Shown: positions 2,893-62,211 of the stretch, one piece after another
Layout: each line of letters starts with the position of its first letter
Numbering within the stretch: the first letter of the stretch is position 1
Translations under genes and position numbers: made by a program
Assembly (NCBI RefSeq): GCF_024502345.1
Contig: NZ_JALDNN010000003.1
DNA length: 64,000 nt
Origin: Escherichia coli
Lineage (GTDB): Bacteria; Pseudomonadota; Gammaproteobacteria; Enterobacterales; Enterobacteriaceae
Reading direction: 5' to 3' (one strand)
The notes under the pieces: model-generated
The model's database searches: none
Told to the model about the DNA's origin: nothing
What the model saw: the letters and a program-made list of their open reading frames with translations, nothing else

Positions 2893-3828
2893 ATGTTTAA
2901 TGAAAGTGATGATAAAAACTTTGTTAGTGCAATGCTTAAATGTCAACTTGGCCTGAATATAAGCCAAGAGGATATTACAATATATGACAAAGAAAATCAT
3001 TTTGAACAACTTTCTTTTAAAGCAAATGTGGCGCTTGATGATTTGTTATTTTATCTGGATTTATATATATCAGAATTGATTAAGCATAATGCGCCGTATT
3101 CTGAAACTGAAGTCCTTCGGACTAAAATCAAATACTTTCTTAAAGTATATGAAAAGTCTGGTTTTCAGAACATAAGAATTCGCGGTTATCATAACGCGCA
3201 CAGCACTATAGATATTGTCGATATCGCATCATTAATATTGGCGGGGTCTGTACCGGAGTCTGAACATGATTCAATAGATCCTGTTTTAAGAAAGGAAATC
3301 TATCAAAATCGCATGAGTGTTGAGGGTAAAGTTCTCATTGCCCGTTTTGCACTTAAGCAATTTTTCCATTCTGATTTTGGTGATTTCATCTTAGAGTTCG
3401 AGAAAAGTATCTCCAAGTGTTTGAATACTTCTCTCCAGATAATTAAATCTGTAAAGAACTCATTTAACCGTTTAGGTCAATATCAATATCAGCGTCGTGT
3501 AAAAGATGACCTGACTTTGCATCTTGATTTGAATACAGATGAATACCCGGCCTGTATGCCAGACCTTTACATCGGTTTCAAGGAGTCTGAAGGGACGACG
3601 GGAGTGTATCGCGATGATGAAAAAATCATTCGTCTTTATACTGGCGTTAGTTCCGGAAAGGATGTTCCTGTAATGATGACCGTTCGATTCACTGGCTGTG
3701 ACGGGAGTGTTTTGTCTGAATCATCGCACGGTACTTTCTGTTCCGTGGGACCTACCGGCCGAGTGCAGGTTTGTGACAGAGTTGCGTTGGTCCAAGAAGC
3801 GGTCGAAGAGTTACGGGATGTTGTTTAA
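2893..3828 (+). CDS. hypothetical protein, array member (311 aa)
   Basis: ATG at 2893 preceded by GAGGAAG SD (track ORF starts at upstream TTG 2860); shares blocks with 4005..4961 (KVLIARFALKQFFHSDF vs QVLIARFALEKFWDTHF; YQYQRRVKDDLTLHLDL vs YSYTRRITDELSLHISL). Confidence 0.55.
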   Translation: MFNESDDKNFVSAMLKCQLGLNISQEDITIYDKENHFEQLSFKANVALDDLLFYLDLYISELIKHNAPYSETEVLRTKIKYFLKVYEKSGFQNIRIRGYHNAHSTIDIVDIASLILAGSVPESEHDSIDPVLRKEIYQNRMSVEGKVLIARFALKQFFHSDFGDFILEFEKSISKCLNTSLQIIKSVKNSFNRLGQYQYQRRVKDDLTLHLDLNTDEYPACMPDLYIGFKESEGTTGVYRDDEKIIRLYTGVSSGKDVPVMMTVRFTGCDGSVLSESSHGTFCSVGPTGRVQVCDRVALVQEAVEELRDVV

Positions 3829-6295: not shown

Positions 6296-6553
6296 ATGAG
6301 CAATACAGATTCACAGACCGTACCAGCTGATGCCCTGTGTGAAAACAGTTCTCAGGTGAAAATTCAGCTAAGTCGAAGCGCCTCACGAGCATTGACGACG
6401 GCGAAAGAAATTCTTGAAACCCGAGGGCTGGTATCCGTATCCACTGAAGACCTTGTTCAGGCCTGTCTCGAAGAAAATCAGCCACTCGACCTGGCAAGTA
6501 TCTATCTTGAGCACCGGCTAAAACAGAAGGGAACCAGTATCTGTGAATTTTAG
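6296..6553 (+). CDS. hypothetical protein (85 aa)
   Basis: ATG at 6296 with GGAG about 10 nt upstream; overlaps the end of the preceding ORF in a coupled arrangement. Confidence 0.35.
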   Translation: MSNTDSQTVPADALCENSSQVKIQLSRSASRALTTAKEILETRGLVSVSTEDLVQACLEENQPLDLASIYLEHRLKQKGTSICEF

Positions 6554-10095: not shown

Positions 10096-10375
10096 CAAGA
10101 CGGTCGGATTGCTGGAAATCCATTACTTTAAGCGGCCGCTGAGCATGGAGTATGCAGCCTGGCTGCGTGTGATGTGTGCCGGTTTGCTATTTATTTTTAT
10201 TCAGATGGTCCCGGCATTCACGTTTCTGTATACCCTGAAGCTGGTGGCACTGTTAAATCTGGGCGTGCAGACGATGAAGCTAAACGGGGTTTATAAATTT
10301 AAACGCACCGGGATGATGCCGCCGAAAGACGCCCCTCATGATCTTGGCCGCTTTAATCCATTTCGAAAGAAGTAA
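10031..10375 (+). CDS. hypothetical small membrane protein (114 aa)
   Basis: ATG at 10031 preceded by GAGGA; two hydrophobic helices; overlaps the 3' end of 9187..10095 in another frame, so one of the two may be mis-called. Confidence 0.3.
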   Translation: MELGIMVCIVLLLSLAAVWISNKTVGLLEIHYFKRPLSMEYAAWLRVMCAGLLFIFIQMVPAFTFLYTLKLVALLNLGVQTMKLNGVYKFKRTGMMPPKDAPHDLGRFNPFRKK

Positions 10376-10521
10376 TCCTCATTAGCGCCCCGAAGGAGTA
10401 TATAGTAAAAACAGTGTCTATTCGCGTGTGAGTGAGTGACAGGGCTTTACATATAACGTCAGCGGCTTTCATTTCAAACGTACATACTGTGTATAATGGT
10501 ATGTACGTTTTTTATTTGCGC

Positions 10522-11786: not shown

Positions 11787-12606
11787 GGCACTGTTGCAAA
11801 GTTAGCGATGAGGCAGCCTTTTGTCTTATTCAAAGGCCTTACATTTCAAAAACTCTGCTTACCAGGCGCATTTCGCCCAGGGGATCACCATAATAAAATG
11901 CTGAGGCCTGGCCTTTGCGTAGTGCACGCATCACCTCAATACCTTTGATGGTGGCGTAAGCCGTCTTCATGGATTTAAATCCCAGCGTGGCGTCGATTAT
12001 CCGTTTCAGTTTGCCATGATCGCATTCAATCACGTTGTTCCGGTACTTAATCTGTCGGTGTTCAACGTCAGACGGGCACCGGCCTTCGCGTTTGAGCAGA
12101 ACAAGCGCGCGACCATAGGCGGGCGCTTTATCCGTGTTGATGAATCGCGGGATCTGCCACTTCTTCACGTTGTTGAGGATTTTACCCAGAAACCGGTATG
12201 CAGCTTTGCTGTTACGACGGGAGGAGAGATAAAAATCGACAGTGCGGCCCCGGCTGTCGACGGCCCGGTACAGATACGCCCAGCGGCCATTGACCTTCAC
12301 GTAGGTTTCATCCATGTGCCACGGGCAAAGATCGGAAGGGTTACGCCAGTACCAGCGCAGCCGTTTTTCCATTTCAGGCGCATAACGCTGAACCCAGCGG
12401 TAAATCGTGGAGTGATCGACATTCACTCCGCGTTCAGCCTGCATCTCCTGCAGCTCACGGTAACTGATGCCGTATTTGCAGTACCAGCGTACGGCCCACA
12501 GAATGATGTCACGCTGAAAATGCCGGCCTTTGAATGGGTTCATGTGCAGCTCCATCAGCAAAAGGGGATGATAAGTTTATCACCACCGACTATTTGCAAC
12601 AGTGCC
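11787..12606 (-). mobile_element. IS26-family insertion sequence, variant allele, inverted relative to the other two copies
   Basis: 820 bp bounded by 14-bp inverted repeats GGCACTGTTGCAAA / TTTGCAACAGTGCC; Tnp differs from the other two copies at three residues (EMQAERG vs EMLAERG; ALVLLK vs ALALLK; IIDATLG vs IIGATLG). Confidence 0.95.
11839..12543 (-). CDS. tnpA: IS26-family transposase Tnp26 (234 aa)
   Basis: MNPFKGRHFQRDIILWAVRWYCKYGISYRELQEM... matches the IS26/IS6-family transposase recalled from memory; start taken at the MNPFKG methionine. Confidence 0.95.
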   Translation of the reverse strand: MNPFKGRHFQRDIILWAVRWYCKYGISYRELQEMQAERGVNVDHSTIYRWVQRYAPEMEKRLRWYWRNPSDLCPWHMDETYVKVNGRWAYLYRAVDSRGRTVDFYLSSRRNSKAAYRFLGKILNNVKKWQIPRFINTDKAPAYGRALVLLKREGRCPSDVEHRQIKYRNNVIECDHGKLKRIIDATLGFKSMKTAYATIKGIEVMRALRKGQASAFYYGDPLGEMRLVSRVFEM

Positions 12607-47568: not shown

Positions 47569-48388
47569 GGCACTGTTGCAAATAGTCGGTGGTGATAAAC
47601 TTATCATCCCCTTTTGCTGATGGAGCTGCACATGAACCCATTCAAAGGCCGGCATTTTCAGCGTGACATCATTCTGTGGGCCGTACGCTGGTACTGCAAA
47701 TACGGCATCAGTTACCGTGAGCTGCAGGAGATGCTGGCTGAACGCGGAGTGAATGTCGATCACTCCACGATTTACCGCTGGGTTCAGCGTTATGCGCCTG
47801 AAATGGAAAAACGGCTGCGCTGGTACTGGCGTAACCCTTCCGATCTTTGCCCGTGGCACATGGATGAAACCTACGTGAAGGTCAATGGCCGCTGGGCGTA
47901 TCTGTACCGGGCCGTCGACAGCCGGGGCCGCACTGTCGATTTTTATCTCTCCTCCCGTCGTAACAGCAAAGCTGCATACCGGTTTCTGGGTAAAATCCTC
48001 AACAACGTGAAGAAGTGGCAGATCCCGCGATTCATCAACACGGATAAAGCGCCCGCCTATGGTCGCGCGCTTGCTCTGCTCAAACGCGAAGGCCGGTGCC
48101 CGTCTGACGTTGAACACCGACAGATTAAGTACCGGAACAACGTGATTGAATGCGATCATGGCAAACTGAAACGGATAATCGGCGCCACGCTGGGATTTAA
48201 ATCCATGAAGACGGCTTACGCCACCATCAAAGGTATTGAGGTGATGCGTGCACTACGCAAAGGCCAGGCCTCAGCATTTTATTATGGTGATCCCCTGGGC
48301 GAAATGCGCCTGGTAAGCAGAGTTTTTGAAATGTAAGGCCTTTGAATAAGACAAAAGGCTGCCTCATCGCTAACTTTGCAACAGTGCC
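47569..48388 (+). mobile_element. IS26 copy 2
   Basis: 820 bp with 14-bp IRs GGCACTGTTGCAAA / TTTGCAACAGTGCC; Tnp identical to copy 3 in translation. Confidence 0.95.
47632..48336 (+). CDS. tnpA: IS26 transposase Tnp26
   Basis: 234-aa IS6-family transposase beginning MNPFKGRHFQRDIILWAV. Confidence 0.95.
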   Translation: MNPFKGRHFQRDIILWAVRWYCKYGISYRELQEMLAERGVNVDHSTIYRWVQRYAPEMEKRLRWYWRNPSDLCPWHMDETYVKVNGRWAYLYRAVDSRGRTVDFYLSSRRNSKAAYRFLGKILNNVKKWQIPRFINTDKAPAYGRALALLKREGRCPSDVEHRQIKYRNNVIECDHGKLKRIIGATLGFKSMKTAYATIKGIEVMRALRKGQASAFYYGDPLGEMRLVSRVFEM

Positions 48389-48709
48389 GAAGAAACAACC
48401 GCGTACTGGATGATTACCCCACCAAAAGGGAAAATATTAGGCGTTGTCAAAGGGAAACCTGCGTGGGTTGATATTCCTCCGCCAACACAGGAAGAGCTGA
48501 TCCAGGTCGCTGAGCGTGAGAAAAAGCGACTAATTAATGTGGCTAACGACTTCATTAATAGTAAACAATGGCCTGGTAAAGCGGCAATCAAACGACTGAA
48601 AGACAATGAACTGGTGCAATACAATCTGTGGCTTGATTATCTTGATTACCTTGAATCAACAGACGCATCAACAGCACCTGATATTGACTGGCCTGAGATG
48701 CCAATATAG
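48389..48709 (+). pseudogene. phage tail-fibre assembly protein (Tfa) C-terminal fragment, 5' end removed by IS26
   Basis: C-terminal ...LWLDYLDYLESTDASTAPDIDWPEMPI matches the conserved Tfa C-terminus (..VDTSTAPDIEWP..) recalled from memory; reading frame abuts the IS26 end. Confidence 0.6.
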
Positions 48710-54562: not shown

Positions 54563-55246
54563 GTTTTACTTTCCCGCACAATCAACAAGCTGGAGCCGGG
54601 TTCTTGCACATTCCCGCAGGAGTTCAATCATAAGCGTTGGCTGGACCAGGAATTCAATGACGGAATGGCCAAAATGTTTGGCATCTCCTCATGGGATGAC
54701 TTACTGGATGGCCCGAAAAAAGCCATTTTGCCGAGTTCTGCGGCCTGGTATGACCGCAAATTTAAAACCCCCTCAGGAAAGTTTGAGTTCAGATCTGAGC
54801 TGTGTGAGAAAAATGGCCATACGGCGCTGCCGGAATACAAACCGGAGGCGAAAAGCACGCTGCCATTCCACTTGTTTACACCGCATGTGCAGTTCGGTAT
54901 CCATTCCCAATTTATCAACCTTGACTGGATGCAGGTCTTCTATCCGGAGCCGTTTGTCTATATGCATCCGATTTCCGCAGAAAAAAGAGGCATTGCCGAA
55001 AACGACCTGGTGAAAGTGTTTAACACCGTAGGTGAAGTAGAACTGCGTGCGAAGGTGACCGCTAACGTTCCGGAAGATTTCCTGGTGATGTACGAGGCGT
55101 GGTTCCCGAAAAGGAAATACAACGTTCAAAACGTGGTGGCAGATACCCCAGCCGATATGGGGTTGATGAAAACCGGTGCGCCAGGTGCGGCTATCCACAG
55201 TCAGTTTGCGGACATCATTTTGATCAGTAAAGGAGCAGCGGCATGA
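54563..55246 (+). pseudogene. DMSO-reductase-family molybdopterin oxidoreductase catalytic subunit, 3' fragment (5' part removed by IS26)
   Basis: Frame encodes the C-terminal molybdopterin-dinucleotide-binding region (...VKVFNTVGEVELRAKVTANVPEDFLVMYEAWFP...); followed by Fe-S and anchor subunit genes. Confidence 0.65.
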
Positions 55247-55800
55247 GACGCGCGTTTTTAGTTAATAGCGATAAATGCATCGGCTGCCGTGGCTGTGCAA
55301 TGGCGTGTAAGAGTTTTAACCAGTTGGAACCTGAACGTTTCTGGCGCTATGTCTACCCGCTGGATAAAGAAATTTATCCGCATGAAGAGCGGGCGTTCTA
55401 TTCGCTGGCCTGTAACCACTGCGAAAACCCGGCCTGTCTGGCGGCGTGTCCGGTAGAGGCGTACACCAAGCGTGAAGATGGTGTCGTGGTGCATAACCCA
55501 GAGCGCTGTATTGGATGCAAAAACTGTATCCGCAACTGCCCATACGGTGCGCCGCGTTTTAATGAGGAGACGAAGAAAGCGGAAAAATGCAGCATGTGCT
55601 ACGAGCGCCTTGATGTTGGTATGCAACCGGCTTGCGTGAATGCCTGTCCGGTAGGTGCGCTGACGCTTATCGATCTGGATGCCGATCCTATACCTGACAA
55701 TGCCGTACAGTATCCGCCGGGATTCCCGCGTATGCCGCAGCTTAATCCTGGCACGCGTTTTATCCTTGCGCGTCAGCCGAAGCAGCCGGAGGGTAATTAA
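55243..55800 (+). CDS. 4Fe-4S ferredoxin-type electron-transfer subunit (DmsB-like)
   Basis: Four Cys clusters (CIGCRGCAMAC, CNHCENPACLAACP, CIGCKNCIRNCP, CSMCYERL...CVNACP); start overlaps the upstream stop. Confidence 0.8.
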   Translation: MRRAFLVNSDKCIGCRGCAMACKSFNQLEPERFWRYVYPLDKEIYPHEERAFYSLACNHCENPACLAACPVEAYTKREDGVVVHNPERCIGCKNCIRNCPYGAPRFNEETKKAEKCSMCYERLDVGMQPACVNACPVGALTLIDLDADPIPDNAVQYPPGFPRMPQLNPGTRFILARQPKQPEGN

Positions 55801-56567
55801 TGGAAAAGTATGAACTTCCGCTGGTCATTTTTACCGTATTGAGCCAGATGTCGGTTGGGATCACGCTCATTCTGACGCTACGCACGCTGCAAGGAAAACT
55901 GGAAAGCAAACGCCTGTACTGGCTGGTAAGTGGGCTGGTTCTGGCGGTGGCGTCCGTTGCAGCGATCCTGCACCTTGCGCATCCGGATCGCGCCTACGAT
56001 GCCCTGATTAACCTGCAGCACGCCTGGCTGAGCCGTGAAATTCTTGGCGCCACCTTATACGGTGCGGCGGTCGGGGTGACGTTTTTGGCAAAAGGGCACA
56101 AAGCGCCAGCTGTTCTGGCCTCTGTTCTCGGTATCGCGCTGGTGGCGGTGCAGGGGATGACCTATGCTGCCCCGGCAATGGTGGCGATCGCCAACGGTCT
56201 GACAATGCTGTTGTTCTTTATCACGGTGTGGGTGATGGGGTGTGCGGCGATTCCACTGCTTAACCTTGCACCTGCCGTTGCCGCATTACGCCAGGGGATT
56301 GTTGTGTGTATGGCGGTCATGATCGCCGCGCCCATTATCTGGCTAAGCGGCGGCACCATCATGCAGATGACGGCGCATGCCTGGCTGACGTCGCCGCTTT
56401 ATCTGGCGAGTCTGGTGTGTCTGGCGGTGGCCTTTGTGCTAAGCCGTCAGGGAGAGCGTCGCGCAAAAGCGCTTTTTGTCCTGCTGTTTGTTGGCATATT
56501 CCTGAGTCGTCTGACGTTCTTTGGCGATACGATCAGCACCATCGTGAATATCGGTCATTTGTATTGA
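55800..56567 (+). CDS. DmsC-like membrane anchor subunit
   Basis: 255 aa, about eight hydrophobic helices; translationally coupled to the Fe-S subunit gene. Confidence 0.7.
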   Translation: MEKYELPLVIFTVLSQMSVGITLILTLRTLQGKLESKRLYWLVSGLVLAVASVAAILHLAHPDRAYDALINLQHAWLSREILGATLYGAAVGVTFLAKGHKAPAVLASVLGIALVAVQGMTYAAPAMVAIANGLTMLLFFITVWVMGCAAIPLLNLAPAVAALRQGIVVCMAVMIAAPIIWLSGGTIMQMTAHAWLTSPLYLASLVCLAVAFVLSRQGERRAKALFVLLFVGIFLSRLTFFGDTISTIVNIGHLY

Positions 56568-56636
56568 TCGTGAGGTAATAAAAACCCCTGTCAGGCGTTA
56601 ACCTGACAGGGGTTTTCTTTAGCGAATCAGTGGCTG

Positions 56637-57065
56637 TTAACGAACAACCAGCACTGGCAAAGTCGCGTGGCGGACAACGCTGGAAGCGTTTGAGCCGAGC
56701 AGATGGGTGCTGATTGATGGGTTACGCGACCCAATGACAACGACATCTGCATTCAACTCTTCACCCAACTCGTTGACCACATCACGGACACTGCCAAAGC
56801 GGACGTGTTGCTTAATACGGGAAGGATCGATGCTGAAGTGACCGACCATCGTTTGCAGACGGGTTTCCGCTTCGTGTTGCAGATGCTCTTCAAAACGACG
56901 GACATCGGCCGCAAAGCGGTGCAGGCTTAAGCTCGCTGAGCCTGGCAGCACATGCAGCAGATGGATAACCCCTTTATCCTGGGCCAGAAATTCTGCATGG
57001 CGAATAGCCTTGTCGCTCAGTTCCATTTCGAATACATCAACAGGCATTATGATTGTGTTGTACAT
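56637..57065 (-). CDS. uspG: universal stress protein UspG
   Basis: [30 protein letters not shown]...[18 protein letters not shown] closely matches E. coli UspG (YbdQ); AAGGAG 7 nt upstream of this ATG; synteny with rnk. Confidence 0.85.
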
Positions 57066-57248
57066 AAACATTCTCCTTGTCATTACATGAACACATAACA
57101 GCATAGTATTAAAAATGATTCTGTCAGTCACGACACAGATTTATGTTTTGCGAACAGGAAAGAAAGCGAGGAGCAGGGAGATCTAACCGGAAAGAGGATG
57201 CAGATGCATCCTCTGTAAGATAAAGCGAGTGGCTTTGATAAGACAGAG

Positions 57249-57659
57249 TTAGCGCAGGTAGTCGCCTGCAGCTTCAGGCTGGTACTCAAGCTCAATAACT
57301 TCGAGGTGCGTTGAGGTCCCGCCTGGCAGTTCCCAGTGAATGGTATCACCAACGCGCAGCCCCAAAAGTGCAGCGCCGACAGGTGCCATTACCGAAAGCT
57401 GTGTGCTGCTGTCAGTCATAGTGGCCGGATACACCAGGGTACGCACACGGACTTCGCCATCACTCAGATTGCGGAATTTCACGCGGCTGTTCATGGTCAC
57501 GACATCGTGCGGCATGGTTTCTGGAGAACACATTTGGGCACGATCCAGCTCGGCGTTAAGGGCGTCGGCAATCGGTAAACCAGCAAACGCAGGTTGCTCC
57601 AACAGGCGGTCAATGCGTTCCGCATCGAGGTCGTTAATGATGATAGTTGGTCTGGACAT
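57249..57659 (-). CDS. rnk: regulator of nucleoside diphosphate kinase Rnk (GreA/GreB family)
   Basis: 136 aa; [44 protein letters not shown] closely matches E. coli Rnk. Confidence 0.9.
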
Positions 57660-58238
57660 TTATTACTCCATGTCGTCGATACTGCGGGTGCGCAGGTAAA
57701 TAATCCCAAAAGAAAACCCTCACCGTCAGGCGGCAAGGGTTTAGCTTTTATGATGATACTGAGACTTACCCCATGTTTGAAGTGATTTAGTTCACATTCA
57801 GGCAAATCATCAATATTGTCGCGTATGGTGTAATGTCAGTCAGTTAACGAACCTAAGGTAATAAATCTGTTGCCTCCGTCGCATTGCTACGTTCACCTTA
57901 TGTTATTCACTTCTCTGAAACCATCCTACCTGTGAACGTGTTAAGGGTACTATCGCCGTACCCTTAACAATCCCGGCGGGAGCCTGGGTTGCAAGGGAGG
58001 CGGCGGTGAGCCTCCCTTGCTCGTTCACGGGTATCAGTGCTTCAGAGAAGTGATACCGCTGAGGTGAACGGAACCCTGAGCCGGGATCACATGTTCCCTA
58101 TAATGCTTAACTGACAAGCATTACGCGTATGGTGTGATTTTAGCCGAAAAACGTGATCGTTCTCCAATTTGCATTATGCTTTTTAAGCGCTCGCTGCGGG
58201 CGCGTCAAACAACTCAGTGTTCCGCGACAGGAGATCTC

Positions 58239-59069
58239 ATGAGCCAGTACGACAAACTTACCTTGAAAGACGGCAGCTATTTGCATTTTAAAGATTGGGG
58301 AAGTGGACAGCCCATTGTCTTCAGTCATGGTTGGCCGCTGACGGCAGATGCGTTTGAGGATCAGATGTTATTCCTCGGGTCGAAAGGATTTCGTGTGATC
58401 GCCCATGACAGGCGTGGGCATGGGCGTTCGGCCCAACCCTGGGATGGTCACAATATGGAGCAGTATGCTGACGATCTGGCTGAACTTACCGCGCATCTCA
58501 ATCTTAAAGATGCCGTCCATGTCGGACACTCTACCGGCGGCGGGGAAGTGGCGCGGTATATTGGCCGCCATGGAACGCAGCGGGTCGCAAAAGCGGTGTT
58601 AATTGGCGCGGTGACGCCCATTATGATCAAGACTGACTTTAATCCAAATGGCGTGCCGAAAGAGGTATTCGATGGCATCCGTGAGGGGGTTGTGAACGAT
58701 CGCGCCGCCTTTTTCTATGAATTGACCGCTGCATTCTATGGCTACAACCGTCCTGGCGCAAAAGAGTCGAAAGCCGTCAGGGAAAGTTTTGTTGAACAGG
58801 GTTTACAAGGTTCCATCAAAGCGTTGTACGACTGTATCCACGCGTTTTCGGAAACAGATCTGCGTGAGGATCTCAAAAAGATGACCATCCCGACGCTGGT
58901 GATCCACGGTGATGACGATCAGATTGTCCCGTTTGAAACCTGCGGAAAGGTCGCGGCGGAAATACTGCCTGATTCGCAGTTGAAGGTATATGTCGGCGGC
59001 TCGCATGGCATTTGCACCACCCATAAACAACAGATCAACGGTGACCTGCTCAACTTTATTCAGTCGTAA
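58239..59069 (+). CDS. alpha/beta-fold hydrolase (non-haem haloperoxidase/esterase-like)
   Basis: ATG with AGGAG upstream; nucleophile elbow GHSTGGG; ~276 aa. Confidence 0.7.
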
Positions 59070-59165
59070 TCGTTGGCAGATTGTTCTACGCTGATCTTCT
59101 TTTTCCAGGGGGATGAGCGAAGCATAATTTGTGCTGCGCTGACGTTAACTTCAACAGGGAACGCT

Positions 59166-59789
59166 ATGTATTTCTATCAACCGTCACAGGGACACGGCTT
59201 ACCGCATGACCCGCTAAATGCCATCATTGGACCGCGCCCGATTGGTTGGATTGCGTCGCGTGACGGCAATGGTCGGCACAATCTGGCACCATACAGTTTC
59301 TTTAACTGTTTTAACTATCATCCGCCGATTATCGGTTTCGCCAGCAGCGGCTGGAAAGACAGCGTGCAGAATATTATTGAAACCGGTGAATTTGTCTGGA
59401 ACCTGACGACTCTTGAGCTGGCCACTGCGATGAACGAAACGTCAGCCAGCTTGCCGCACGGTGAGGACGAGTTTTTTGCCGCCGGGCTTAGCAAGGCAGA
59501 TAGCCGGATAGTCAACGTGCCGCGCGTGGCGCAAAGCCCGGTCAATTTTGAGTGTCGCTTATCGCAAAGCCTGCAACTAACTACCGCTGATGGCTCACCG
59601 GTTGATACCTGGCTGGTATTGGGGGAAGTGGTGGGCATCCACATCGATGAAACGCTCCTGGAGGACGGCATCTATCAGACGGCGAAAGCGAAGCCGGTAC
59701 TGCGCGCAGGTGGGCCAACGGCATATTATTCGATCAGTGAAACACACCGTTTTGATTTAGTTCGCCCGGACGCCCGAGCAAAACGCTAA
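59166..59789 (+). CDS. flavin reductase-like domain protein
   Basis: 207 aa; N-terminal region IGPRPIGWIASRDGNGRHNLAPYSFFN typical of flavin-reductase-like FMN-binding proteins. Confidence 0.6.
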   Translation: MYFYQPSQGHGLPHDPLNAIIGPRPIGWIASRDGNGRHNLAPYSFFNCFNYHPPIIGFASSGWKDSVQNIIETGEFVWNLTTLELATAMNETSASLPHGEDEFFAAGLSKADSRIVNVPRVAQSPVNFECRLSQSLQLTTADGSPVDTWLVLGEVVGIHIDETLLEDGIYQTAKAKPVLRAGGPTAYYSISETHRFDLVRPDARAKR

Positions 59790-59830
59790 GCTTACGGACC
59801 GACGCCAGCTTGCAGCGTCGGTCGCAAGTT

Positions 59831-60637
59831 TCAATATCCCACTTTGTCGATAATAAACTGTTTACCGCAGATACCTGGATGCGGTTGCGGTAAGAATGAC
59901 TGTGCAGATAACGTCTGGTTGATGTTGTCGGCTTTCAGGGATAACTGGATCTCAGTGAGATACGCCGGATTGCCGTGGCAGCTTAGCTTCACAGCTTTGA
60001 CGTTCTCTTTGCCCCAGCTTTTGGCAACTGCGGCGTCAAATGCGTTACGGCTGACAGTTTTGCCGTAGTTTTCCGCCAGGAATTTGCCCACCTCGCTGTT
60101 CTTAACCTCATTATTCAGCCGTACCATCGTGCCAAAGTACGCGTCGGGATCAAAACCGAAACACGCGCCATGTTTGGCATACTCGTAACGTTCCAGACAG
60201 GATCTCCCTCCAGCGCCGGGCATTACGGCGCTGAGTTTTGCTGCGCTTTCCAGCGACAGCCCGGTTTCGGGGGCCGCGCATTTACGGCTGGCACGTGCTT
60301 CAGGCAGGTTGGGAATAGGGCGAGTCGCGCAGCCAAAACGCATCCAGCGGCGGTTGTCGACTCCACGGGCGGCAATGGATTTAGGCAGGCTGGGCCATAA
60401 ACCGTGAACGGTCAGGAAATCCGCTTTGTCTGCGCTCTCTTTTTGTAAACGACATTCGTCAGGCTCCTGACGATTACGCTCGTGTTGGCTCTGACAAAAT
60501 CCGGTTTGCCAGGAGAGGGCCAGCACGTAGCTGTCAAAATCAGTGTATTGTTTTGCCTGAAGTTCATCGGCCTGAGCTGCAGAAACTGGCAGCAGAAGCG
60601 CTGCCAGTAATGAAGAATAACGCCATGTTGATGTCAT
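59831..60637 (-). CDS. rna: ribonuclease I (RNase T2 family)
   Basis: 268 aa with signal peptide; RNase T2 catalytic block FLTVHGLWP; synteny rnk ... rna-citT as in E. coli. Confidence 0.85.
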   Translation of the reverse strand: MTSTWRYSSLLAALLLPVSAAQADELQAKQYTDFDSYVLALSWQTGFCQSQHERNRQEPDECRLQKESADKADFLTVHGLWPSLPKSIAARGVDNRRWMRFGCATRPIPNLPEARASRKCAAPETGLSLESAAKLSAVMPGAGGRSCLERYEYAKHGACFGFDPDAYFGTMVRLNNEVKNSEVGKFLAENYGKTVSRNAFDAAVAKSWGKENVKAVKLSCHGNPAYLTEIQLSLKADNINQTLSAQSFLPQPHPGICGKQFIIDKVGY

Positions 60638-60747
60638 GATGATTTCGGATACTTATATAAATTCTGAATATCATCTATTTAATCATAAAAAATGCCAGTC
60701 AGGTTTAGCTGACTGGCATCATTTTCATCAGGTGTGAACCGAAATGA

Positions 60748-62211
60748 TTAGCTCCACATCGCCAGAATCGGCCAGCCGACCAGCAGAAGCATAGAGATGT
60801 AGATAACGCCGAAGATAGCACCCAGACGCCAGTAGTCTTTGGACTTCACATAACCACAGCCGTAGATGATAACGCCAGGGCCTGTTGCATATGGAGTCAG
60901 ACAGCCCATGATACCGATGGACAGTACCAGCAGGATACACAGGTGTTCCATCGGCACGCCCGGGATACCTTTACCGACAGCCAGAATAACCGGCAGCATG
61001 GTGGCAGTGTGTGCAGAAAGGCTGGCAAACAGGTAGTGAGCAAAGTAGAACACCAGCACCAGCACGATTACGGTCGCGTTAGGCGAGAAGCCTTCCAGGT
61101 GCGTGCTCATGGTGTTGGCGAACCAGTCGATGAAGCCTGAACGGGTTAAACCATTCGCCATAACGACCAGCGTGGCGAGGTTAACCAGGGTGTTCCATGC
61201 GCTGTTATAGCGGGTAATGTCTTTCCACGGTACCACATGCAGCGCCAGCATCAGGGAGACAGCAAGCAAACCCACTGCGGTTGCATCAATCAGTTTACCA
61301 CCGAAGACCCACAGGCCCAGGCTGAGCAGAACCAGACCGATCAGCGTTATCTCTTTACGGGTCAATTTACCCATGCCTTTCAGTTCATCACCGGCCCATG
61401 CGGCAACTTCAGCACTGTGAGTGACCTCTGGTTTGTACAGAACGTATGACAACCACGGAGCAACGATCAGCAAAATAATACCAACCGGCAGGAAGCTGAG
61501 GAACCATTGCAGCCAGCTGATTTGAATACCGGCAATTTTGTTGACGAATTCCAGACCCAGTACGTTTGGCGCAGCGCCGGTCACGAACATAGAGGAGCTC
61601 AGGCTGGTACTGATTACCATCATCCACATCAGGTATCCGCCGATACGGCGCGCGGAAGGATCGTTCGGGAATGATTTAAACAGCGGCGGCAGGTTTTTGA
61701 TAACCGGGAATACGGTACCACCGGTACGCGCGGTGTTAGACGGTGTAAACGGCGCCAGCAGAATGTCGATGATAACAATCGCATAGCCCAGCGTCAGGGT
61801 GCGTTTACCCATGAATTTCACCAGGAACAGCGCGATACGACGACCCAGACCGGTGACTTCATAACCCAGTGCGAAGATAAACGCACCAAACACCAACCAC
61901 ACGGTGGTGCTGGAGAAGCCCGCCAGACCCCATTTCAGCGCTTGCTTACCCGCTTTAAATGCCGGGTCGGCCAGTTCTGAAGCATCAAACAGCAGATAGT
62001 TGCTGCCGATAACGCAGATCGTTACGGCGATAAAGCTGATCGCTGTTGCCGGAATTGGCTCCAGGATCATACCGACGATCATCGCCACAAACACGGCAAA
62101 GTAGTGCCAGGCCTGTGGAGGCATTCCATCAGGGACGGGGATAAGAAACATGACGCCCATTACGACCAATGGGGCCAGTAACTTCCATATTTTATCTTTT
62201 GCTAAAGACAT
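60748..62211 (-). CDS. citT: citrate:succinate antiporter CitT
   Basis: 487-aa polytopic transporter; N-terminus and overall pattern match CitT; adjacent to citG/citX/citF. Confidence 0.9.
   Translation of the reverse strand: MSLAKDKIWKLLAPLVVMGVMFLIPVPDGMPPQAWHYFAVFVAMIVGMILEPIPATAISFIAVTICVIGSNYLLFDASELADPAFKAGKQALKWGLAGFSSTTVWLVFGAFIFALGYEVTGLGRRIALFLVKFMGKRTLTLGYAIVIIDILLAPFTPSNTARTGGTVFPVIKNLPPLFKSFPNDPSARRIGGYLMWMMVISTSLSSSMFVTGAAPNVLGLEFVNKIAGIQISWLQWFLSFLPVGIILLIVAPWLSYVLYKPEVTHSAEVAAWAGDELKGMGKLTRKEITLIGLVLLSLGLWVFGGKLIDATAVGLLAVSLMLALHVVPWKDITRYNSAWNTLVNLATLVVMANGLTRSGFIDWFANTMSTHLEGFSPNATVIVLVLVFYFAHYLFASLSAHTATMLPVILAVGKGIPGVPMEHLCILLVLSIGIMGCLTPYATGPGVIIYGCGYVKSKDYWRLGAIFGVIYISMLLLVGWPILAMWS

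Follow-up and report, generated by a model that had tools for sequence, protein, structure and literature searches.

The region between the divergently transcribed rnk gene and a hydrolase gene on the Escherichia coli contig NZ_JALDNN010000003.1 (assembly GCF_024502345.1) carries a dense nest of perfect palindromes, raising the question of whether these represent a mobile repetitive element or a structured regulatory RNA. The stretch of DNA analysed, 64,000 nucleotides in length, is hereafter referred to as the window. [quoted passage not shown] The feature is found to be a discrete, non-coding insertion of 292 bp with imperfect 17-nt terminal inverted repeats of the IS4 type and a duplicated target of 12 bp, belonging to a multi-copy family of the Enterobacteriaceae, and is very probably a foldback MITE, of the IS4 subgroup, that has undergone internal deletion. 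The striking palindrome would thus be a transposon insertion and not a regulator.

The four inverted repeats named earlier are all present and pair as described. In the outermost, GTTCACC (57891-57897) is complementary to GGTGAAC (58062-58068), followed inwards by the 12-mers CACTTCTCTGAA (57908-57919) and TTCAGAGAAGTG (58041-58052), while two inner hairpins are perfect over 12 of 12 pairs (57939-57950 with 57958-57969) and 11 of 11 pairs (57991-58001 with 58010-58020). The 12-mer CACTTCTCTGAA has just two matches within the window, against 0.33 expected. RNA folding of the palindrome region gave -115 kcal/mol on both strands (z = -7.9 and -9.0), with none of 200 shuffled sequences equally stable, and DNA folding of 57820-58135 gave -74.6 kcal/mol versus -38.1 +/- 3.6 for shuffled sequences (z = -10.1), in agreement with the claim that the symmetry lies far above background. 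The extent first proposed (57885-58090) captures a real feature and is too short, as the self-complementarity spans 57830-58124 and the inserted element comprises 292 bp, bracketed by a perfect 12-bp direct repeat (Table 1). The only open reading frame inside it encodes 41 amino acids and is attributable to chance. The nesting is explained by the foldback organisation, the concentric repeats being the pairing of one arm with the other and the two inner hairpins being a hairpin, hereafter hairpin 2, that belongs to each arm.

Alleles of the site were compared in ten large chromosomes that encode an identical Rnk in the same gene order and, together with the window, make up 11 sequences (comparison loci are cited below by L number). 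The spacer between rnk and the hydrolase gene measures 275 bp in seven of the ten chromosomes, 975 bp in the other three and 579 bp in the window. The flanks of the alleles are identical and the spacers differ solely between the two copies of CGCGTATGGTGT, a sequence that occurs once in each 275-bp allele (the empty alleles L010-L013, L015, L016 and L018). The excess of the window over the empty allele (579 - 275 = 304) equals 292 bp of element and 12 bp of duplication. Three states are therefore found at one nucleotide position with the same duplication: empty (n = 7), a short form of 292 bp (the window) and a long form of 688 bp (n = 3); the 688-bp form also occupies the same rnk site in the type strain of Citrobacter youngae. 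Because all three alleles share one site and one duplication, the sequence is an insertion and not a leader RNA. The different flanking repeats present at other loci argue against the possibility that the empty alleles are secondary deletions of an ancestral sequence.

Table 1. Positions in the window of the inserted element, its parts and the adjoining promoter-like site
Feature	Positions	Strand	Length	Remarks
Hybrid promoter-like site facing rnk	57812..57839	-		-35 CTGACA from the putative MITE tip, -10 AATATT native
Left target-site duplication CGCGTATGGTGT	57820..57831		12 bp (11 bp should its last T be part of the element)	Perfect repeat with 58124-58135; single in the 7 empty alleles
Element, probable short-form foldback MITE	57832..58123		292 bp	Corresponds exactly to what the empty alleles lack
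Left terminal inverted repeat TAATGTCAGTCAGTTAA	57831..57847	+		19/22 match to the K-12 IS4 repeat TAATGCCAGTCAGTTAAGCAAC when extended; fits the IS4-subgroup signature
Arm A: leader, CGTTCAC-N34-GTGAACG box (57890-57938), hairpin 2 (57939-57969)	57848..57977	+		Extends up to the deletion junction
Hairpin 2 of arm A, TGTTAAGGGTAC / GTACCCTTAACA	57939..57969			Family-wide hairpin, covaries strictly Watson-Crick
Junction palindrome TCCCGGCGGGA	57971..57981			Fuses both arms; compared with long forms L014 and L003
Arm B, inverted: leader, CGTTCAC-N34-GTGAACG box (58070-58022 on the minus strand), hairpin 2 (58020-57991)	57978..58106	-
Hairpin 2 of arm B, GCAAGGGAGGC / GCCTCCCTTGC	57991..58020			Counterpart, by homology, of the G-quadruplex motif in E. 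coli RRS
Right terminal inverted repeat TAATGCTTGTCAGTTAA, read inward	58107..58123	-		18/22 match to the IS4 repeat; pairs with the left repeat
Right target-site duplication CGCGTATGGTGT	58124..58135			Perfect repeat

A structured RNA that regulates in cis, as a leader or in the manner of a riboswitch, either rnk or the hydrolase and flavin-reductase genes would be in keeping with the very stable RNA fold on either strand and with a position between divergent genes beside a genuine leader RNA. The same genes, however, lack the element in seven of the 11 sequences with identical Rnk, its interior is inverted in the long allele, and copies lie at unrelated loci such as torD-yeiP, torD-uspF and yegH-asmA. 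The Rfam scan proposed with the sequence-only reading, performed at permissive thresholds on 55000-61000 and three related loci, returned the adjoining rnk leader and unrelated matches only, with none for the element even at E <= 1. The pairing within hairpin 2 bears on the same question. Among 77 unique arms, 43 distinct stems were observed, in which 867 of 878 pairs are Watson-Crick, with one G-T and one A-C. In RNA helices G-U pairs are tolerated; the near absence of G-T pairs therefore indicates exact complementarity on both strands, as expected of a DNA palindrome rather than an RNA helix. When G-T and A-C mismatches in hairpin 2 were compared for a bias that would reveal a functional RNA strand, there were virtually none of either kind and neither strand was favoured, which speaks against RNA. 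The leader or riboswitch interpretation is rejected as highly improbable. The covariation instead points to a constraint on the hairpins at the level of DNA, and their exactness may be due to selection acting on hairpin or cruciform DNA, or to correction templated inside the hairpin itself.

The ends of the element, read inward, are TAATGTCAGTCAGTTAACGAAC and TAATGCTTGTCAGTTAAGCATT, and are similar to those of IS4 in E. coli K-12 (TAATGCCAGTCAGTTAAGCAAC and TAATGCCGATCAGTTAAGGATC), which is itself surrounded by a 12-bp duplication. The IS4 subgroup is defined by ends of the type -AATR--------WTW- and direct repeats of 10-13 bp (PMC2266710 Table 1), and both ends of the element and the length of its duplication agree with this definition. 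An IS4-family element on plasmid CP137457, with a transposase just 53% identical, has the same ends and a palindromic duplication of 13 bp. Transposases of the IS4 subgroup are common on plasmids of the Enterobacteriaceae (694 records), a Citrobacter plasmid carrying a partial copy only. From the ends and the duplication, the mobilising enzyme would be an IS4-subgroup transposase. Some MITE tips in Pseudescherichia vulneris (L046-L048), TAATGCCAGTCAGTTAAATCGACTGGCATTTTTTTT, recapitulate the terminus that IS4 has downstream of its transposase gene (L142 1700-1745), with the hairpin and T-run included, which suggests that this end of IS4 may have been the source of the MITE tips.

A search for further members was performed in one genome per species with the arm pattern CGTTCACYTYA-N30-31-GTGAACG, and yielded at least 120 loci, with about a dozen chance matches that lack hairpin 2. 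At least 14 loci were found in C. youngae ATCC 29220, at least eight in C. werkmanii and at least 22 in Enterobacter asburiae, of which many lie where a contig ends, and the matches listed include further members of the family from Kluyvera, Cedecea, Mangrovibacter, Pseudescherichia, Leclercia, Lelliottia, Phytobacter, E. albertii and E. coli. Within the window, sensitive blastn detected no copy beyond this one. Many arms carry a tip, (T/C)AATGnnnnTCAGTTAA, at a distance of 12-95 nt outside the CGTTCAC box, and copies with both tips intact are flanked by differing direct repeats of 11-13 bp, often in palindromic, terminator-like targets. Examples of such duplications are ACTTATCAGTG (perfect, within GGCCACTTATCAGTGGCC), CACAGCCTGGCTG (12/13) and GGCTCATGGCC (10/11). 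Since the duplications differ from locus to locus, transposition is indicated rather than site-specific integration at a fixed core. The copy test that was to separate a repetitive element from a regulator is thus decided by many copies at unrelated loci in Citrobacter and other Enterobacteriaceae, and the suggestion of a MITE gains support from these copies together with the terminal inverted repeats, the target-site duplication and the empty alleles. The family appears to be a widespread and so far unnamed enterobacterial repeat.

Comparison of the size variants provides insights into the origin of the short form. In the 688-bp form, an AT-rich centre separates two inverted arms of about 300 bp. 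The tip of each arm is followed by a leader, the CGTTCAC-N34-GTGAACG box, the perfect hairpin 2, the motif CAAyCCnGGCTCCCGGCGGGAAAAT and a second branched region, in that order. Everything distal to the junction palindrome is missing from the window copy. The long forms L014 and L003 carry TCCCGGCGGGAAAAT ... ATTTTCCCGCCGGGA where the window has this junction, which is the apparent scar of an internal deletion that removed about 400 bp, namely the distal arms and the AT-rich centre. Of the two half-arms that remain, arm A is nearest to the A arms carried by L014 and L094, both long alleles (86-87% identity), and arm B to the B arm of L014 (90%), and the architecture of arm A recurs in about 140 arms. 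Paired arms fall into spacing classes of about 80, about 133, about 250 and 520-600 bp. Other loci have lost as much as the window copy or more: a similar junction is seen in L096 (spacing of about 133 nt), and in L029 and L045 the spacing is about 80 nt with hairpin 2 as the centre. The size variants fit recurrent internal deletion at the base of the foldback.

In the mechanism proposed, a DDE transposase of the IS4 subgroup, supplied in trans, would bind both ends and excise the element, and reinsertion would follow cuts staggered by 11-13 bp, often in palindromic, terminator-like targets. The full-length element measures about 690 bp and is a foldback of two arms of about 300 bp with hairpins of their own. 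Deletion at the short palindrome at the foldback base would have removed the centre and the distal arms and left two half-arms head to head, the hairpins being maintained as exact DNA palindromes and not as RNA helices.

Some observations weigh against this explanation. Mobility is inferred from polymorphism; the terminal repeats of the window element agree at 14 of 17 positions; and many arms in Enterobacter have no recognisable IS4-like tip. A tblastn search with InsG over the window and the loci examined, which left whole Citrobacter genomes outside the search, matched K-12's own IS4 only. Furthermore, the window and long forms share the outermost 16-17 nt at both ends and have their interiors in opposite orientation, which simple cut-and-paste transposition does not explain. 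The flipped interiors may have arisen by independent insertions into a single hot spot, by an inversion over the 9-bp repeat GTCAGTTAA or by conversion from paralogous copies. The arms at the rnk site differ by 10-13% between the window and the long form, while the 500-nt flanks differ by 0-0.6%, and the 688-bp elements of L014 (C. freundii-type) and L094 (C. youngae), presumably orthologous, differ by 6.5% with flanks that differ by 0.2-2.6%. The latter values suggest that the element may evolve, or be converted, faster than its surroundings.

The flipped interior also invites a composite origin, in which a separate, TTAA-targeting element entered a shell of IS4 ends (the palindrome TAATG..GTCAGTTAACTGAC..CATTA) through the TTAA at the centre of the shell, or in which the interior inverts between the 9-bp repeats GTCAGTTAA / TTAACTGAC. 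Such an origin would accommodate the identity of the window and L014 in the outer nucleotides with everything inside two TTAA flipped, the variation of tip-arm combinations by locus, and a decayed copy in L003 that ends exactly at TTAA. Among the approximately 120 loci listed, however, neither an empty shell nor a tip-less interior with a TTAA duplication was present, the 11-13-bp duplications always lie around the tips and never around the interior, and a recombinase gene was not found nearby. With mixed tip-arm combinations, two independent insertions would match in tip orientation half the time, and the divergence of the arms relative to the flanks is a further point against an inverting interior or an invaded shell. 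The composite origin is regarded as very unlikely, and the internally deleted foldback MITE is retained as the probable explanation.

Two kinds of sequence were observed immediately outside the arms in some genomes. Tandem units of about 24 nt with GTTCCGTTCAC lie directly outside the arms in Enterobacter sp. Bisph1 and Mangrovibacter (L032 ~6440-6530, L033 ~10320-10415, L059 ~1150-1250, L060), and look like arrays of a putative binding site. In a group of Enterobacter arms (L035, L036, L103, L128-L134), CCCTCTCCCTTGAGGGAGAGGGyTGGGGTGAGGGG precedes the arm in place of the IS4-like tip. A similar motif, CCCTCTCCCTTCCAGGGAGAGGGTCGGGGTGAGGG, occurs in the alx-sstT spacer of K-12 (L144 ~3600-3700), where other E. 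coli strains have TRIP1d, one of the repeats considered next.

The TRIP1 repeats of E. coli (Rudd 1999; Li et al. 2024, PMC10888264) have been renamed RRS, for replication risk sequences (Pham et al. 2023, 2024; PMC10287960, PMC11194060). RRS are GC-rich repeats of 222 bp, described as belonging to no known repeat class, with a G-quadruplex that stalls polymerases and triggers post-replication gaps (PMC10287960, PMC11194060), and the TRIP1/RRS repeats have been reported to be conserved and conditionally essential for genome structure; the unit length of TRIP1/RRS was taken here as 222-273 bp. The distal part of the long form has two to eight matches per E. coli genome, the best known lying between aqpZ and lysO. 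The long-form arms match TRIP1a at 70-76% identity over 174-199 nt (E = 7e-26 and 3e-33) and are 71-74% identical, across about 260 nt, to the yegH-asmA element; a long-form arm aligns with TRIP1d along its whole length and is 77% identical to TRIP1e in an alignment of 304 nt that starts 28 nt inside the tip and reaches the AT-rich centre. In the window copy, about 90 nt of each arm remain, namely its proximal part between the CGTTCAC box and the junction, and this copy has a direct match only to the TRIP1-like element in the yegH-asmA intergenic region of most E. coli, to which arm B is 74-75% identical over 102 nt (E = 6e-8). This yegH-asmA element is absent from the TRIP1a-e list of Li et al. 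2024 (PMC10888264) and is truncated in K-12 (L005 3500-3660). In strain 17MR471 (L006 2400-2690) it is longer, in the opposite orientation and situated between inverted repetitive extragenic palindromic (REP) sequences.

These homologies suggest that the TRIP1/RRS repeats belong to a mobile family. On balance, it appears reasonably probable that the TRIP1/RRS repeats of E. coli are tip-less half-copies of a foldback MITE family with IS4-type ends that is still polymorphic in Citrobacter, Enterobacter and their relatives, the window element being its deletion derivative. The exact DNA hairpins of the family, which in E. coli stall replication, would then have begun as a property of the transposon that the host came to use; the opposite course, in which IS4 ends captured an element of the host, is also possible. 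The RRS literature describes Kluyvera RRS as near-identical to those of E. coli, and TRIP1a and TRIP1c are reported in either orientation at one locus (PMC10888264). If the proposed origin is true, both near-identical copies in distant genera and the variable orientation are what one would expect of remnants of a foldback transposon. A clean empty site was sought for TRIP1d and TRIP1e, and K-12 has other DNA at these positions (a GGGTGAGGG-type repeat, and ybaQ with REP arrays), which represents replacements from which no duplication could be read. The 5' TAATGC of TRIP1e aligns to an internal TAATG of the arm leader and not to the tip, and the 'tip' of TRIP1d, TAAGGCTGATTAGATAAC, is suggestive only. 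The TRIP1/RRS articles, as far as their text was searched, mention neither transposons nor MITEs nor IS4 and do not treat the repeats as mobile. No published link of TRIP1/RRS, or of any named MITE, to IS4 ends was found in a literature coverage that is incomplete and has ISfinder outside it.

The same kinship raises the possibility that the element is kept by the host for replication or topology in the manner of RRS, its hairpins or a G-rich tract stalling lagging-strand synthesis to produce programmed gaps, with the transposon features being vestigial. The homology of the long-form arms is consistent with such a role, as are the strictly Watson-Crick hairpins, which indicate a constraint on DNA, the retention in the window copy of the region homologous to the RRS G-quadruplex motif, and the report that RRS trigger post-replication gaps wherever they are placed (PMC11194060). 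However, the distal two-thirds of each arm are gone from the window copy. The strong RRS motif GGGGGTGCAGGGGGCGGCGG has as its counterpart in the window GGGTTGCAAGGGAGGCGGCGG, whose G-quadruplex potential is borderline (best G4Hunter 1.20 versus 1.84 for RRS-lysO, absolute values). The window copy, with its distal arm lost and this counterpart weak, is outside the definition of an RRS. In addition, the element is absent from most close relatives, and thus dispensable at the rnk site, and it lies in an IS26-rich, plasmid-like segment and not in a position flanking Ter. A host-maintained role is therefore regarded as improbable for the window copy.

The other classes of enterobacterial repeat were also considered. 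REP sequences measure about 35-40 bp and generate no duplication, and sequences of the enterobacterial repetitive intergenic consensus type (ERIC), also called intergenic repeat units (IRU), measure about 127 bp. An assignment to REP or its mosaic arrangement BIME (bacterial interspersed mosaic element), or to ERIC/IRU, would suit an element that is intergenic, palindromic and repeated, and a REP does adjoin the E. coli relative at yegH-asmA. The REPs beside that relative are, however, separate flanking sequences; the ends, the 12-bp duplication and the size of 292-688 bp are unlike REP or ERIC as these are generally described, and the closest relatives are TRIP1/RRS and not REP/BIME. No support was found for this assignment, which is regarded as highly improbable.

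With regard to its surroundings, the element has the rnk leader RNA (Rfam RF01771, 57705-57813, minus strand; 122.5 bits, E = 1.6e-23) as its neighbour. The insertion is 6 bp upstream of that leader's 5' end, and the leader has a terminator hairpin at 57714-57742. A consensus scan detected a hybrid promoter-like site facing rnk in the filled alleles (the window and L014) and not in the empty allele. There, TGGAGA-18-TAAAAT is the closest site of this kind that faces rnk, and its end lies immediately upstream of the target; in the filled alleles this site is displaced by 304 or 700 bp. A TATAAT at 58099-58104 in the element faces the hydrolase gene and has no good -35. From these motifs, the element would supply a predicted -35-like hexamer towards rnk and displace the DNA upstream, and the effects of the insertion on neighbouring genes are probably incidental.

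The segment 53742-64000 of the window is 99.99% identical to part of plasmid 2 of E. coli MSB1_9D, which carries chromosomal genes of the Citrobacter type beside IS26. The rnk region is thus chromosomal DNA of Citrobacter that was captured by a plasmid-like replicon rich in IS26. Three copies of IS26 were observed in the window, at 11787-12606 (minus strand), 47569-48389 (plus) and 53742-about 54561 (plus), and in MSB1_9D plasmid 2 a molybdopterin oxidoreductase gene is cut short by IS26. Between a convergent dmsC-like gene and uspG, at 56577-56648, a strong terminator-like hairpin flanked on either side by T-runs was also noted, with weak Rfam matches to families of small RNAs that contain terminators.

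As a kind of element, the insertion is ordinary, and it is of more interest for the origin it implies for the TRIP1/RRS repeats. It ties an enterobacterial repeat family to transposition that is probably of the IS4 type, and the homology of the arms provides both a hypothesis of origin and a natural experiment for TRIP1/RRS, so far studied only in E. coli, with dozens of natural variants that include long, short and single-arm forms in both orientations at many loci. On the practical side, copies are located where the contigs of draft assemblies end, and they may alter promoters, in this instance that of rnk.

Comparison with known systems places the element among several of them. The rnk leader RF01771 shares the intergenic region and is likewise rich in hairpins, but it is a separate, adjacent object present in all alleles. 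With IS4 (insG) and its subgroup, the element has in common a terminus, TAATGnnnnTCAGTTAA, that matches the IS4 inverted repeats at 18-19 of 22 positions and fits the signature, a target duplication of 11-13 bp and a preference for palindromic targets. It differs from IS4 in having no transposase gene, in its size (292 bp, or 688 bp at full length, versus 1.4 kb) and in an unrelated interior that is itself a foldback of two structured arms. The MITEs of the ERIC/IRU, Correia and RUP families are similarly small, non-coding, intergenic and multi-copy, with terminal inverted repeats, a target duplication and possible promoter-like hexamers, whereas the transposase family deduced here is a different one, the duplication of 11-13 bp is much longer, and the inverted arms, at about 300 bp, are of unusual length and contain conserved hairpins with strictly Watson-Crick covariation. 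TRIP1/RRS resemble the family in being GC-rich, highly structured and found in either orientation at a locus, with arms homologous to those of the long form over 174-304 nt at 70-77% identity and hairpins in the same order. In contrast, the E. coli copies are single arms at fixed loci with no recognisable IS4 ends or duplications, while the window copy is a polymorphic, tail-to-tail pair of truncated arms that lacks the distal 'second Y' and retains both its ends and its duplication.

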